DNA of 64,000 bases from Methanofastidiosum sp. (lineage in GTDB: Archaea > Methanobacteriota_B > Thermococci > Methanofastidiosales > Methanofastidiosaceae): assembly GCA_013178285.1 (NCBI GenBank), contig JABLXD010000022.1, positions 3,802-67,801 on the forward strand. Direction: 5' to 3'. Made by a program: the position numbers and the translations under genes. Position 1 is the first letter of the stretch. Each line of letters begins with the position of its first letter. A model generated the notes under the pieces. It did not search any database. It was not told where the DNA came from and saw only the letters and a list, made by a program, of their open reading frames with translations. Shown here piece by piece: positions 3,364-63,351 of this stretch.

Positions 3364-4047
3364 CTAACCTCTCCGTCTGACATTTGAGTCTTTGTCGCAT
3401 ATCTCTTTTAAGACTTGCTCAAAAGAATCATCGTGCATTAAAACCCTATTGAGATAGACTCCGGTCCTGCCAATCTTATCCCTTCTTGTAAGTACTTGGG
3501 AGCGCTCCCTAACTATATCAATTGAGACATTAAGCAGTTTTGACACCTCTGCTTCCCTGCCAGTTATCTCCTCTTCAATGTGCCCATCTTCAGTTGGCCT
3601 AATCAATATCAATCTCTTATCAACACCAGGCACTCTCTTGTCTTTTTTAAGGTCCTCAAGCTCAATCGCTCCACCAAAATAGTAGAACTCAATCTCCCGT
3701 AACTTTGACTCAGTTATGGGAAATGTTATCGTTTCCCCTGTATAGAGGGTAATTGAGCCCTTGACAAGGTGCCATGGGGTTGCCTGTACTATGCTCCTTT
3801 CTTTAATCCCGATATCCTCTAAAGCCATCTCCAATAGGTATGTTTCAGGGATATGCTCTATGAAAAAGTCAATATCTGACCCCTTATGGACATCACCCCT
3901 CGCAACTGACCCATACAGAATAGGTTGAAAATCAGATATCTTTTCCATGACAATAAGAGCTTTTGACCTTATTGATGAAAGCATGCTCCAATTTTCATCG
4001 TTATAAGTTACTTTTCTCCTGTGAAATGCGACTGTTTTCTCTTTCAT
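3364..4047 (-). CDS. Archaeal predicted nucleotidyltransferase (COG2413-like)
   Basis: GSVARGDVHKGSDID polB-type NTase motif; PGVDKRL and GRTGVY C-terminal motifs. Confidence 0.75.
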   Translation of the reverse strand: MKEKTVAFHRRKVTYNDENWSMLSSIRSKALIVMEKISDFQPILYGSVARGDVHKGSDIDFFIEHIPETYLLEMALEDIGIKERSIVQATPWHLVKGSITLYTGETITFPITESKLREIEFYYFGGAIELEDLKKDKRVPGVDKRLILIRPTEDGHIEEEITGREAEVSKLLNVSIDIVRERSQVLTRRDKIGRTGVYLNRVLMHDDSFEQVLKEICDKDSNVRRRG

Positions 4048-58464: not shown

Positions 58465-59706
58465 GTGATTAATATGTCGATGGAAATAAGTCTATTAGAT
58501 ACAATGTGGGTGTTAATTGCCAGCTTTCTGGTATTTATTATGCACCTTGGGTTTACTACAATAGAGGCAGGATTAACAAGGTCAAAAAATACTATTAGTA
58601 TTATTACTAAGAATGTATTCACTATAGTAATGGGGAGCATCGTGTTCATGGTGATAGGCTTCACTTTGGCCTTTTCTGGCTCTGGGAGCTTCATAGGGGA
58701 CCTTGGATACTTCTTCATAAATGGAATTGGTGAAGGCCCATGGCCCGGTCTTCTGATACCTGCTCTGGCATTCTTTCTATTTCAAGCAATGTTTGCGGCA
58801 ACTTCCGCTACCATTGTAAGTGGTGCAGTTGCTGAAAGGATGAAGTTTAGTGCATACATAGTATTATCAGTGGTCCTTGTTGGATTGATATACCCAATAA
58901 TTACACACTGGGTGTGGGGTGGAGGATGGTTGTCCTCTCTAGGATTCCACGACTTTGCAGGATCAACAGTTGTACACAGCGTTGGAGCGTGGACAGCTTT
59001 GGCTACAGTGATAGTATTGGGACCTCGCTTTGGAAAGTTTGATGAAAAAGGAAATCCACGGGCTATGCCAGGACATAACATAGGGCTAGCCGCGATAGGA
59101 TGCCTTTTGCTCTGGTTTGGCTGGTTTGGATTTAACCCTGGCAGTGAACTTGCATTTGACAGCGCTGTTCCACTAATTGCAATTACAACAAACATCGCTG
59201 CTGCTGGAGGGGGGCTCGCCGCCCTTACAGTTTCCTGGCTTAAAACCAAAAAGCCTGATGCAGGTATGTTCTTAAACGGTATTCTCGCAGGTCTTGTAGC
59301 AATAACTGCGCCATGTGCAGTAGTATCTCCACAGTGGGCTTTGGTGATAGGATTAATAGCAGGTTCCATAGTAGTCTATGCGGTAGAGTTTATAGAATCA
59401 AAGCTAAAGATTGATGACCCTGTTGGAGCCATATCAGTTCACGGTGTATGTGGTGTCTTTGGAACATTGGCAGTAGGGTTGTTTGCAAGCGAAAATGGAT
59501 TGATTACAACAGGCTCTGCTTCACAACTTATAGTTCAAGCGATAGGAGTAGTCTCTACATTTGGCCTTGTCTTTTTTTCTGCACTGGTAATGGCGAAGAT
59601 AATCGATAAATTATTAGGGCTAAGAGTTTCTCCAGAGGTAGAAATAAATGGTCTTGATATTACAGAGTTTGGTGGAGATTCGTATCCAGACTTTTTAAAG
59701 ATGTGA
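58465..59706 (+). CDS. amtB: Ammonium transporter
   Basis: FQAMFA, SGAVAER, HDFAGSTVVH, LWFGWFGFN, DDPVGAISVHG. Confidence 0.96.
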   Translation: MINMSMEISLLDTMWVLIASFLVFIMHLGFTTIEAGLTRSKNTISIITKNVFTIVMGSIVFMVIGFTLAFSGSGSFIGDLGYFFINGIGEGPWPGLLIPALAFFLFQAMFAATSATIVSGAVAERMKFSAYIVLSVVLVGLIYPIITHWVWGGGWLSSLGFHDFAGSTVVHSVGAWTALATVIVLGPRFGKFDEKGNPRAMPGHNIGLAAIGCLLLWFGWFGFNPGSELAFDSAVPLIAITTNIAAAGGGLAALTVSWLKTKKPDAGMFLNGILAGLVAITAPCAVVSPQWALVIGLIAGSIVVYAVEFIESKLKIDDPVGAISVHGVCGVFGTLAVGLFASENGLITTGSASQLIVQAIGVVSTFGLVFFSALVMAKIIDKLLGLRVSPEVEINGLDITEFGGDSYPDFLKM

Positions 59707-59717
59707 GGTGGTAAAAG

Positions 59718-60056
59718 ATGAAAAAAATTGAAGCTATTATTAGGCCAGAAAAACTTGACGACATAAAGGCTGCATTGGACAAACTTGGATGTGTTGGAAT
59801 GACTATAACAGAGGTAAAAGGCAGAGGAAAAGGGGGCGGTGTGACAAAGCAGTGGCGAGGAAGGCAGTATCACGTAGACTTCATACCAAAGATAAAGATT
59901 GAGCTGGTAATCAAAGCAAAGTATCTCGATAAAGTAGTTGGTATCTTACTAGAGAGCGCACGAACAGGCAAAGAAGGTGACGGTAAGATATTCATTTCCA
60001 ACGTAGAAAAGGTTTACAGGGTAAGAACTGGTGAGGAAGACCAAAAAGCAATATAA
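59718..60056 (+). CDS. glnK: P-II nitrogen regulator
   Basis: MKKIEAIIRP, EVKGRG, T-loop, PKIKIE, TGKEGDGKIF; downstream of amtB. Confidence 0.93.
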   Translation: MKKIEAIIRPEKLDDIKAALDKLGCVGMTITEVKGRGKGGGVTKQWRGRQYHVDFIPKIKIELVIKAKYLDKVVGILLESARTGKEGDGKIFISNVEKVYRVRTGEEDQKAI

Positions 60057-60869: not shown

Positions 60870-62057
60870 TTATTTTTTATCTTTTTTGATAATCATAGAG
60901 ATACAGTTTTGTGGACAGACCATCTTACAGAGTGCACAGCCTACGCATTTTTCAGTATCTACATCATTAAGTTTTGGATTTTTCATTGCATCTGTGGCTC
61001 CATCTCTACAAGCTGTGACACATCTTCTGCAGTCTATGCATCTTTCTGTGTCAACATCAGAGTAGACCTCATCAACGTAGTCCAATTTTTCAAGCTCAGT
61101 GATCTTTGGTAATGTAATTCCTTTCAAGTCGGCAAGTGAGTCGTATCCGTGCTCTTTCATAAATGTAAGTATGTTTTCATTCCAGCCTTTTACTATGTCA
61201 AATCCATACCACATTGCAGCTGTTGCAAGTTGGACTGTGCCGGCTCCCATCATCATATACTCAATTACATTTTCCCATGTATCAATTCCACCGATACCTG
61301 AAACATTAATACCTTCTCTTGCAATTTCTCCGACCATTCTAAGTCCTATTGGTCTAACGGCTGGCCCAGAGTATCCTCCAAAGCCTCCTTTGCCCCAAAC
61401 ATCGGGCAATGGATTTCCGGTATTGATATCAACACCAGATAAAACCAAAACAGTATTAATCGCAGATACCCCTTTGGCACCGCCTTTTATTGCTTCTTTT
61501 GCAATTGAGGCAATATCAGTTACATTTGGGGTTAGTTTTGTCATGATTGGTATGCTAACAGCTTCTGCTGCTGCCTTTGAAACTTCACTAGTCAATGGAC
61601 AATCTTGACCTATATATGCTCCCATTGCACTATCTGACATGTGAGGACATGAAACATTAAGTTCTATTATATCTGCACCTTCTGCTTCTACATCTTTTGC
61701 AAGCTTTGCCCATTCATCGAGGTCTGTACTTGCCATTATGCTTGCAACAATTGGGGTACCGTGGGTTTTCTTTAATTCTCTTAGTACTTTAAACTCTTTT
61801 TTCCACCAGTCAAAGACATAGGTAGAAATATGCTCTATGTTCTGCATTCCAAATAATCTGTTTCTAACTTTTACTCCCTGAAATCTTGGTTTTGGATCGT
61901 GGAATTGTCTGTAAGAAATAGTCTTAGTAACTCCACCACCAAATCCAGCTTCTACAGCCCTTTTTATATGATCTGCATCCAAAGTTGGGGGGGCTGAAGA
62001 GAGAAGAATCGGACTTTTAAACTCAACACCTAAAAATTCAACACCTAAATCGACCAT
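60870..62057 (-). CDS. preA: Dihydropyrimidine dehydrogenase PreA-like subunit (FMN barrel plus 2x[4Fe-4S])
   Basis: ELNVSCPH..AMG..IGQD, KLTPN, AINT, GGYSGPAVRP, GIGGI; CIDCRRC / CVGCALC ferredoxin motifs. Confidence 0.8.
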   Translation of the reverse strand: MVDLGVEFLGVEFKSPILLSSAPPTLDADHIKRAVEAGFGGGVTKTISYRQFHDPKPRFQGVKVRNRLFGMQNIEHISTYVFDWWKKEFKVLRELKKTHGTPIVASIMASTDLDEWAKLAKDVEAEGADIIELNVSCPHMSDSAMGAYIGQDCPLTSEVSKAAAEAVSIPIMTKLTPNVTDIASIAKEAIKGGAKGVSAINTVLVLSGVDINTGNPLPDVWGKGGFGGYSGPAVRPIGLRMVGEIAREGINVSGIGGIDTWENVIEYMMMGAGTVQLATAAMWYGFDIVKGWNENILTFMKEHGYDSLADLKGITLPKITELEKLDYVDEVYSDVDTERCIDCRRCVTACRDGATDAMKNPKLNDVDTEKCVGCALCKMVCPQNCISMIIKKDKK

Positions 62058-62061
62058 TAGA

Positions 62062-63210
62062 TCACCTTCCATACTTTAATCCATATACTTGTGGGATAAT
62101 AGAATATTTTGAACCTGCGGCCCTTTTCAGGAATGAAGGATCGTTTGTAATAAACGGATATGCCCTCCACTTTGAATCAGCCCTAGCAACGATGGCTTTG
62201 GAGAATACGTCATTCTTAAGGCCATATGTTATTAAGGCTGTTATAACTCCACCATCTTGACTATGTGGTGATGGATTTTTGGCCCTTGCCGCAACAATCT
62301 CAGGTTCTTCCTGATTCTTCAAGAGGATATTCTTGAAAGAATGTGTTCTTGGACAGGACATGTAGCAACATCCACAATCAGGCAAACAACTCCTAATACT
62401 GTAGGGCCTCCCATCCTCCAGTATTTCTATATTATAACATGGACATGCAAGGGCGCATGTTCCACATGCTACACAAAGCCCTGGTTGCAAAATTTCTTTT
62501 TCTAGGTCCATAAACTTCTTTTTATGTCCTTTCTCAATAAATCCTTCTAAATTATCATCTTTTTCCAAATCTACAAAAGGAAGTTTGAATCCCTTATCTT
62601 GAGCAAGTTTGATAGATTTTTTAGCCTGTTTGTTATTTAGATCTATAACCTTATTTAGTGCTTCCATTTGGACGTTTGGCGAGACTTCAATTAAGTCTTG
62701 GTCAATAAGTTTCTTGAACAAATCCTTTGCTTCTTTAGTTCTCAAAATTATAGTTGACCATCCTGCCTCTGTCCCCACACTCCCTATAGATATATCTGCA
62801 AAATCACCAGTAAAATCCGTACACTGTCTGCAGTTTCCTCTAGCATACTTTGATACTTCTGCTATCTTTCTTGACCTAACTTCTTTGTCTGTATATGCAT
62901 AGAAAATTCCACTCGAGATATTCATCTTATTGACTTCTTCTAATGGTAAGCCCATATTTTTTTCAACAAAAGATGGTATTGTTTTTGGAGAAAAATTTTC
63001 CTTGCAAAATACGGCTATAGTGAATACTCTTTTTGGCCAGTGGGGGTAGTCTGAATCTCTATCTTTATAGAATTCTTTGAATTCATTTGTAAGCGCCATT
63101 ATCTTCTTTACACCGTTTATCTCACATGGATTTCCTACTATGACTACTTGTGCTCTGGGGTCTTTAGTTGTCTCGGAGAAACTAACCTCCTTGATAATAG
63201 CTTCACTCGT
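62062..63210 (-). CDS. Circularly permuted FrhB/FdhB-family flavoprotein, probable ACG start
   Basis: VGNPC, FCKENF, CRQC, ADISIGSVG first; then 2x[4Fe-4S]; then QDGGVIT...AGSKY. Confidence 0.85.
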   Translation of the reverse strand, partial: TSEAIIKEVSFSETTKDPRAQVVIVGNPCEINGVKKIMALTNEFKEFYKDRDSDYPHWPKRVFTIAVFCKENFSPKTIPSFVEKNMGLPLEEVNKMNISSGIFYAYTDKEVRSRKIAEVSKYARGNCRQCTDFTGDFADISIGSVGTEAGWSTIILRTKEAKDLFKKLIDQDLIEVSPNVQMEALNKVIDLNNKQAKKSIKLAQDKGFKLPFVDLEKDDNLEGFIEKGHKKKFMDLEKEILQPGLCVACGTCALACPCYNIEILEDGRPYSIRSCLPDCGCCYMSCPRTHSFKNILLKNQEEPEIVAARAKNPSPHSQDGGVITALITYGLKNDVFSKAIVARADSKWRAYPFITNDPSFLKRAAGSKYSIIPQVYGLKYGR

Positions 63211-63351
63211 TTATATCCCTCCTATCTTTAAATTTTCAAAAACCAAAATAGATAAAAACATGATTTCTTTATGTTTTTTTTATTTAAATAGTTTTCGTCG
63301 TATATTCATTTAAATAAATAAATAGTAAAATATATGCGGATTAGACCTGAA

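Follow-up and report, generated by a model that had tools for sequence, protein, structure and literature searches.

A circularly permuted FrhB-family protein in place of PreT beside PreA in Methanofastidiosum: a probable F420-linked dihydropyrimidine dehydrogenase

We analysed a stretch of 64,000 nucleotides of DNA from Methanofastidiosum sp. (the window; C19:3802-67801, i.e. positions 3,802 to 67,801 of contig JABLXD010000022.1, in a 2.1-Mb genome that is 97% complete), in which two adjacent genes code for a FrhB-family protein with a circularly permuted domain order (here called cpFrhB, with residues numbered in the stop-to-stop frame 62062-63210) and for a protein of the PreA type. The two proteins would form a dihydropyrimidine dehydrogenase (DPD) in which cpFrhB takes the place of PreT and probably draws its electrons from reduced F420. 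The pair is made up of the following features.

62062..63210, minus strand: cpfrhB, which codes for the FrhB-family flavoprotein with circular permutation; its 382 codons run from ACG 63210 to TGA 62064-62062.
62677..63150, minus strand: FrhB_FdhB_C half of cpFrhB, residues 21-178, with the [4Fe-4S] ligands C29, C69, C127 and C130 and the GSVG loop (S144-V145).
62341..62493, minus strand: internal ferredoxin domain of cpFrhB, with two CxxCxxCxxxC-type motifs (C246/249/252/256 and C275/279/282/286).
62089..62295, minus strand: FrhB_FdhB_N half of cpFrhB, residues 306-374; here lie the K368-Y369 loop and, at 318-321, the FAD-binding start of the QDGG helix.
60870..62057, minus strand: preA-type gene, 395 aa, with the FMN TIM barrel (DHO_dh) and its residues N78, N139, S141, C142, N205 and T206.

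The ATG at 62057 opens the preA-type gene 4 nt past the cpfrhB stop TGA, and its Shine-Dalgarno sequence, AGGTGA, overlaps that stop; an alternative ATG at 62072 would overlap cpfrhB. The two genes would be translationally coupled, and their products would form a complex. The initial annotation of the locus, made from the letters alone, had described the 4-nt gap, which holds with preA starting at ATG 62057, and the motifs VGNPC, FCKENF, CRQC, ADISIGSVG, GWS..RT, QDGGVIT and AGSKY, all of which are present in the cpfrhB frame. It had also seen no PreT or GltD in the operon, and the neighbours of the pair are the gene of the primase large subunit, upstream, and a MJ1433-like gene on the opposite strand, downstream.

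The Pfam scan of the frame 62062-63210 placed FrhB_FdhB_C (PF04432) at residues 21-178 with 123 bits (cut-off 23.3) and FrhB_FdhB_N (PF04422) at residues 306-374 with 58.7 bits (cut-off 22), and NCBIfam detected a FrhG-like 2x[4Fe-4S] segment between them, at residues 227-290. The order is C-Fer4-N, and not the N-domain-then-C-domain order canonical for the FrhB/FdhB family. Aligned to a solved chain of the order Fer4-N-C (8rja_E), residues 235-374 of cpFrhB correspond to chain residues 7-162, and residues 16-206 to chain residues 174-347. Against four normal-order homologues cpFrhB gave two non-colinear high-scoring segment pairs (HSPs), whereas against tandem duplicates of the same homologues a single colinear HSP ran across the junction (19-375, E 7e-57); a match that becomes colinear only with the tandem duplicate is what is classically expected of a protein that was duplicated and then trimmed. 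The ancestral C-terminal tail helix (…KGFKLPF) is retained directly before the ferredoxin domain and resembles the …KYNLKVPF that ends the genome's own FrhG::FrhB. The permuted arrangement of FrhB_C, 2x[4Fe-4S] and FrhB_N proposed in the initial annotation is thereby confirmed in the Pfam and NCBIfam scans, the 8rja_E alignment and the tandem-duplicate comparison.

The AlphaFold model of cpFrhB, built on 11 permuted sequences, reached a pLDDT of 83.6 and a pTM of 0.85, with disorder confined to residues 1-16. Its best PDB matches were FrhB chains, followed by Fsr and the zeta subunits of F420-reducing CODH/Fwd, at E values of 1e-10 to 1e-7, while the ferredoxin-type HCAR was matched at E 0.04 only; as expected for a permuted protein, the Foldseek alignments were limited to its C half, about 196 columns.

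The permuted frame is found in 14 of the 17 Methanofastidiosum species genomes, the window's own among these, and in at least three other lineages; PF04432 precedes PF04422 in all orthologues, and the cpfrhB-preA pair is syntenic in many independent assemblies and metagenome contigs. A misassembly, by which the initial annotation had thought the unusual order might be explained, is excluded because the same frame occurs in those 14 genomes of the genus and in many metagenome contigs.

The partner protein scored 418.5 bits on the PreA equivalog NF006183 (NCBIfam, cut-off 335), and its orthologues in two of the other lineages (L030 and L033) 378-440 bits, whereas the PyrD models gave 197 bits, well under their cut-offs. 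The DHO_dh Pfam domain was found at 133 bits. The protein could be aligned to pig DPD over residues 530-834 and 919-1006 with 206 bits, compared with 105 bits for DHOD B, and in this alignment N78, N139, S141, C142, N205 and T206 fall on N609, N668, S670, C671, N736 and T737 of pig DPD, the NxSC and NT motifs being conserved; in the DPD structures these positions include the catalytic cysteine and the pyrimidine-binding Asn and Thr residues. Of ferredoxin domains PreA carries only the C-terminal one, a Fer4 dicluster with two CxxCxxCxxxC motifs that hold two [4Fe-4S] clusters (C345-C355 and C376-C386).

A PreT encoded elsewhere might have been the true partner, as the initial annotation had recognised, and PF14691 gave nothing above cut-off for PreT/GltD anywhere in the 97%-complete genome; what adjoins PreA is cpFrhB. 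Within the genus both proteins are present in 14 genomes and both are absent from 3, i.e. they are gained and lost together. Across the class, PreA was above cut-off in 18 of 133 genomes, 16 of them with cpFrhB, which is always adjacent to PreA. It is very likely that cpFrhB is the electron module of PreA.

The PyrD superfamily, to which PreA belongs and whose DHO_dh domain it shares at 133 bits, raises the question of the substrate. The enzyme could run in the oxidative direction as an F420-reducing dihydroorotate/dihydropyrimidine dehydrogenase, or could reduce another alpha,beta-unsaturated ring; the PreAT of E. coli has no established pathway role, and in the genus the pair is not clustered with other Pyd genes. 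We consider this improbable in view of the scores above (418 bits for PreA versus 197 for PyrD, and 206 for pig DPD versus 105 for DHOD B), of a separate, canonical PyrD encoded with PyrE and PyrF in the same genome, and of the gene context of orthologous pairs. In three other lineages (L030, L033 and L035) cpFrhB and PreA stand amid a CN_hydrolase-family N-carbamoyl amidase, an omega-aminotransferase and an NCS1 nucleobase permease, i.e. in clusters of the Pyd type, together with an amidohydrolase, a carbamate kinase, an AsnC regulator and methylmalonyl-CoA genes.

In the window's own genome a dihydropyrimidinase (PydB) is encoded at C1:108332-109711, with 628 bits on TIGR02033 (cut-off 393). 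The omega-aminotransferase that adjoins it is 50-61% identical to the aminotransferases of the three clusters, and two NCS1 permeases are present (~66% identity). The region C1:106250-109711 brings the dihydropyrimidinase and the omega-aminotransferase together with an isochorismatase-family, weakly RutB-like hydrolase, and it likely encodes the later steps of the pyrimidine pathway, at a site apart from cpfrhB-preA. The pyrimidine oxidoreductase proposed at the outset gains support from the Pyd-type clusters, from the dihydropyrimidinase beside the aminotransferase (the hydantoinase for which a check had been suggested) and from the joint gain and loss of cpFrhB and PreA. The enzyme is probably a DPD, and a reductive pyrimidine pathway is probable in Methanofastidiosales and Theionarchaea-type archaea.

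Beside the pair, the window (58465-60056) and three further loci (L002, L003 and L005) show synteny with a MJ1433-family gene, glnB (P-II) and amt, which hints at nitrogen-regulated expression of cpfrhB-preA.

As to the electron donor, the flavin site of cpFrhB was compared with those of characterised FrhB modules. Across the aligned permuted proteins the four ligands of the FAD-proximal [4Fe-4S] cluster (C29, C69, C127 and C130) are all conserved, and they are spaced as PC-X39-C-X57-C-X2-C, compared with PC-X40-C-X54-C-X2-C in Fsr; their counterparts in FrhB are Cys104/134/192/195 (Mills 2013, PMC3591093). Conserved likewise are the Q318-D-G-G321 helix start and the K368-Y369 loop, whose FAD-binding roles come from the same work (Mills 2013, PMC3591093), and the S144-V145 loop, which adjoins the deazaflavin ring of F420. 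Fsr, CODH and Fwd each contain a FrhB module that serves as F420 adaptor, and GOGAT putatively does so too.

The genome encodes a FrhA-FrhD-FrhG::FrhB hydrogenase, McrA, CofD and CofE, and CofD or CofE is above cut-off in every cpFrhB-bearing genome checked. The F420-reducing hydrogenase operon (C21:13117-16459, L021) encodes FrhA and FrhD and then, as one fusion protein of 516 aa, FrhG::FrhB. F420H2 is also favoured as donor in that the two-electron/one-electron switch that FAD provides would be superfluous if ferredoxin were the donor. From these sequence comparisons F420H2 is somewhat probable as the donor and ferredoxin unlikely, and pyrimidine breakdown in Methanofastidiosum probably runs on F420. 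For the full reading, a DPD with permuted FrhB as input module and F420H2 as donor, our estimate is roughly 0.58.

Several observations weigh against it. The IGKGK turn (FrhB 163), whose two lysines were proposed as ligands of the F420 phosphate (Mills 2013, PMC3591093), reads I98-S-S-G-I102 in cpFrhB, so that in Methanofastidiosum both lysines are replaced by S100 and I102; one basic residue is retained in three permuted proteins with a PreA gene context (P0012, P0013 and P0014). CofH, the FO synthase, was absent from both Methanofastidiosum genomes tested (G000 and G002), hence the FO needed for F420 would have to be salvaged, in keeping with the many dependencies of this organism. In one genome (G034; L048 183-2883) a CN_hydrolase-PreA-AsnC-MFS cluster like that of Theionarchaea lacks cpFrhB between amidase and PreA, although CofE and other FrhB-family genes are present, and another genome (G005) has PreA with neither a FrhB-family gene nor CofE; PreA is thus evidently able to work with another donor. 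A check on whether PreA without cpFrhB goes with a lack of F420 genes gave a mixed picture, G005 (no CofE, no FrhB family) fitting and G034 (CofE present) not. A ferredoxin-dependent DPD is known from Clostridia (PMC7332683), and cpfrhB itself has no canonical start codon.

The last of these points against the full reading concerns the pathway. No clear orthologue of beta-ureidopropionase (PydC) was found in the window's genome, so that of the two downstream enzymes the initial annotation had named for checking, only the hydantoinase was recovered. The sole CN_hydrolase (C71) is of the nitrilase type and 28-33% identical to the amidases of the clusters. Other candidates for the step are the isochorismatase-like hydrolase beside the aminotransferase, an M20 hydrolase, and a carbamoyltransferase paired with a carbamate kinase. 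This candidate pair may cleave N-carbamoyl-beta-alanine phosphorolytically with a gain of ATP, in place of beta-ureidopropionase. The carbamoyltransferase of the pair, at C33:7086-9222, is below every NCBIfam cut-off, with AOTCase, YgeW and PTCase as the nearest models; in G005 (L049, 1-3048) a carbamoyltransferase and carbamate kinase pair directly follows PreA.

The lost lysines, the absent FO synthase, the PreA without cpFrhB in G034 and G005 and the clostridial enzyme would all suit a ferredoxin-dependent DPD, in which cpFrhB would be a Fe-S/flavin relay or a docking module for reduced ferredoxin, F420 would be uninvolved, and the ferredoxin would be reduced by e.g. Eha/Ehb or 2-oxoacid oxidoreductases. 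The ferredoxin-dependent HCAR is itself a member of the FrhB family. Such an enzyme would have no need of an FAD switch, yet conservation is strict both in the FAD motifs and in the S-V loop near the ring; the model of cpFrhB resembles the F420-using members much more than it does HCAR, and F420 maturation genes are kept in every cpFrhB-bearing genome checked. We therefore regard this alternative as rather unlikely. Loss of the phosphate-binding lysines could also signal a changed cofactor tail, i.e. a flavin site re-tuned to nicotinamide cofactors and an NAD(P)H-dependent enzyme. No Rossmann or Pyr_redox domain appeared in the Pfam scan, and NAD(P)H is not known as a cofactor of any FrhB-family member, which leaves this explanation very improbable.

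With F420H2 as donor, the enzyme would be a heteromeric DPD of cpFrhB and PreA. PreA would be the catalytic subunit, with FMN in the TIM barrel and two C-terminal [4Fe-4S] clusters, and would yield, by reduction, the 5,6-dihydro form of uracil or thymine. The permuted subunit, replacing PreT, would keep FAD, the FAD-proximal [4Fe-4S] cluster and the 2x[4Fe-4S] ferredoxin domain. Electrons would pass from F420H2 to FAD, to the [4Fe-4S] and then the 2[4Fe-4S] of cpFrhB, to the 2[4Fe-4S] of PreA, to FMN and finally to the pyrimidine; FAD and FMN would be joined by five clusters, as many as connect FAD with the siroheme centre of Fsr. The FrhA-FrhG::FrhB hydrogenase encoded in the genome could use H2 to regenerate F420H2, and the dihydropyrimidine would be converted by dihydropyrimidinase and omega-aminotransferase to NH3 and beta-alanine or malonate semialdehyde.

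This arrangement can be set against known enzymes. The PreT-PreA of E. coli and mammalian DPD (PDB 1GT8/1H7W) are alike in the FMN barrel, in the catalytic Cys and the Asn/Thr positions and in the C-terminal 2x[4Fe-4S], as well as in the general plan of a two-flavin enzyme with a Fe-S wire. In E. coli the input subunit is PreT, an NADH-dependent FAD protein with two clusters, whereas here it is the unrelated FrhB fold, which adds one more cluster. PydAc of Clostridium chromiireducens, encoded in a Pyd cluster for nitrogen acquisition (PMC7332683), is likewise the DPD of an anaerobe without NAD(P)H/FAD domains, from which it follows that the donor of DPD is evolutionarily exchangeable. In PydAc both Fdx domains flank the FMN domain in one polypeptide and there is no flavin input module (PMC7332683), whereas PreA here has the C-terminal ferredoxin domain only and is accompanied by a separate FAD-type protein, and is thus not a PydAc. 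The class 1B PyrD-PyrK enzymes also combine a FMN subunit of the PyrD superfamily with a separate FAD/Fe-S electron-transfer subunit; PyrK, however, is an FNR-like [2Fe-2S] protein that uses NAD+, and the window's PreA is well below the PyrD cut-offs. The N-terminal half of Fsr, FpoF/FqoF and the CODH/Fwd zeta subunits (PDB 7NP8, 8RIU and 8RJA) resemble cpFrhB as FrhB cores with 2x[4Fe-4S] that serve as plug-in F420 adaptors, and they are its best PDB sequence matches, although their order is Fer4-N-C and that of cpFrhB is C-Fer4-N.

The closest parallel in domain order is the FrhB-like subunit of a putative archaeal glutamate synthase, named 'GS' ADL58239 (Mills 2013) or 'subunit 4' (Kaster 2011) and probably the FGltS(II)-alpha of Susanti & Mukhopadhyay 2012. 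It has the same C-Fer4-N order as cpFrhB, is colinear with it at ~30-32% identity and stands, in Methanobacteriales, in place of the bacterial GltD, the homologue of PreT. It differs in its partner, a FMN/Fe-S subunit with GATase genes, in belonging to a separate clade and in keeping one lysine of the IGKGK turn.

The known donors of DPD are NADPH, NADH and ferredoxin; an F420H2-linked form, if true, would add a fourth class, and with it a link of the methanogen cofactor pool to nucleobase catabolism is proposed for the first time. Pyrimidines would be a nitrogen and carbon source for the uncultured and nutritionally dependent Methanofastidiosum, which could guide cultivation. The two-gene enzyme is small and directly amenable to heterologous expression, and the L048 locus of G034 is a natural minus-adaptor variant for comparison.

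An earlier remark on the permuted order (Mills 2013, PMC3591093, Fig. 9 legend) concerned the FrhB-like subunit of the putative F420-dependent glutamate synthase, an enzyme also treated by Kaster 2011 and by Susanti & Mukhopadhyay 2012. This glutamate-synthase-linked type makes up more than 570 protein clusters, which stem from Methanobrevibacter, Methanosphaera and other Methanobacteriaceae, a cultured strain among them; the architecture itself is neither new nor unique, and is common in Methanobacteriaceae. The adaptor, called undescribed in the initial annotation, was in this respect already known, and it is its pairing with PreA in place of PreT that appears previously undescribed, hence the probable F420-linked DPD: we found no paper linking FrhB with dihydropyrimidine dehydrogenase, and keyword searches on FrhB circular permutation and on DPD with F420 in archaea returned nothing relevant. 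Permuted FrhB is a reusable adaptor and not a peculiarity of glutamate synthase; it replaces the homologous GltD and PreT in two systems with mutually unrelated FMN subunits.

A full HMMER search added 13 further 50%-identity clusters colinear with cpFrhB, and the homologues collected and classified from the searches comprise 18 permuted and 133 normal-order proteins. The gene context of the permuted ones is PreA (P0012, P0013 and P0014), archaeal glutamate synthase genes (P0016 and P0024), pyruvate/2-oxoacid:ferredoxin oxidoreductase genes (P0036) or NapD/Fer4_5/NosL clusters (P0049 and P0019). At L039 6001-9976 a permuted FrhB lies immediately upstream of the gamma, delta, alpha and beta genes of a 2-oxoacid:ferredoxin oxidoreductase (OFOR), which could be an F420-coupled OFOR. 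The glutamate-synthase-linked cluster at L040 likewise closes with a P-II gene, a further hint of nitrogen-regulated expression.

In the tree of the re-ordered N and C domains, the PreA-linked proteins of four lineages form one clade (SH-aLRT 91). The permuted proteins as a whole fell into four groups in a quick unconstrained tree. Multiple origins of the permutation are unsupported, as the tree constrained to a single permuted clade was 39 log-likelihood units better than the free search (p-AU 0.71), which makes a single origin plausible. A 605-aa protein of Promethearchaeota (L020 3295-7815), considered as a distant permuted relative, was rejected, since its FrhB part has the normal order Fer4-N-C, with a PyrK-like FAD/[2Fe-2S] domain fused to it; its gene directly follows three OFOR subunit genes.

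The start of cpfrhB is unusual. There is no ATG, GTG or TTG ahead of VVIVGNPC in the frame, which opens at ACG 63210 directly after a TAA (63213-63211), and the first canonical ATG, at 63099 (residue 38), would give a product without Cys29. The sequence ahead of the gene contains the following elements.

63218..63222, minus strand: Shine-Dalgarno sequence GGAGG, 7 nt upstream of ACG 63210; GGAGG or GGGGG in 16 of 16 distinct orthologous sequences.
63211..63261, minus strand: upstream open reading frame (uORF) of 16 codons, MFLSILVFENLKIGGI, plus TAA; in frame with cpfrhB and directly abutting it, with invariant ATG, TAA and ACG.
63281..63297, minus strand: BRE/TATA-like element, CGAAAAC TATTTAAATA; conserved, the TATA ending 19 nt before the uORF ATG.

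The ATG (63261) and TAA of the uORF and the ACG are invariant in all 16 distinct sequences, and the uORF has the consensus MFLSILFFxNLxxGGI. For its Leu at position -14 the orthologues use five different synonymous codons, so that the uORF is probably translated, and the position of the TATA, 19 nt before the uORF ATG, suggests a leaderless uORF on a transcript that would start at or near that ATG. Taken together, the pattern of the sequence suggests termination of the uORF followed by re-initiation at ACG, with readthrough of the TAA as the alternative. We rank readthrough lower because the orthologues of other lineages, which start with ATG, do so 23-26 residues before VG.PC, like the ACG product. 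Met38 is missing altogether in four genomes.

The lack of ATG, GTG or TTG before the first Cys ligand could also mean that the gene is decaying, i.e. a pseudogene, if not an artefact of domain order, an explanation that is effectively refuted. A stop-free frame of 381-383 codons is kept in 14 species genomes of the genus; the synonymous:non-synonymous ratios of codons 1-37 (13:12, 16:8 and 13:5) resemble those downstream (31:22, 27:10 and 28:11), the TAA-ACG and the Shine-Dalgarno sequence are invariant, and the permuted order recurs in the >570 protein clusters elsewhere.

Genome-wide, five Shine-Dalgarno plus ACG sites stand at the head of a long frame that has no canonical start; compared with other codons ACG is 8-fold enriched in this class, the next best codon reaching 2.3-fold. 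The other four lie at C1:238128 (+), C27:4432 (-), C30:9669 (+) and at ~12178 (-) of the window, i.e. C19:15979, and their frames have no in-frame canonical start for 22-79 codons. In three of the four (RraA-like, adenine phosphoribosyltransferase and OppC-like permease) a recognisable family N-terminus lies upstream of the first ATG, GTG or TTG.

A wider scenario, tentative and as a whole doubtful, would derive all permuted proteins from one ancient permutation that yielded a portable cassette, plugged into several Fe-S enzymes (glutamate synthase, dihydropyrimidine dehydrogenase, 2-oxoacid:ferredoxin oxidoreductases and NapH/NosL-type clusters) where bacteria rely on free ferredoxin or on an NAD(P)H module of the GltD/PreT type. 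Reduction of uracil and thymine would then be driven by H2 through F420, with the subunit made by an unusual leaderless-uORF/UAA/ACG re-initiation, and would supply nitrogen and C3 units from nucleobases to a methyl-reducing methanogen unable to make FO; the route might include ATP-yielding phosphorolytic cleavage of ureidopropionate by the unassigned carbamoyltransferase and carbamate kinase.

Elsewhere in the window, the segment 18001-26000 has a very low G+C content, 0.23-0.27 compared with ~0.35 in the rest.

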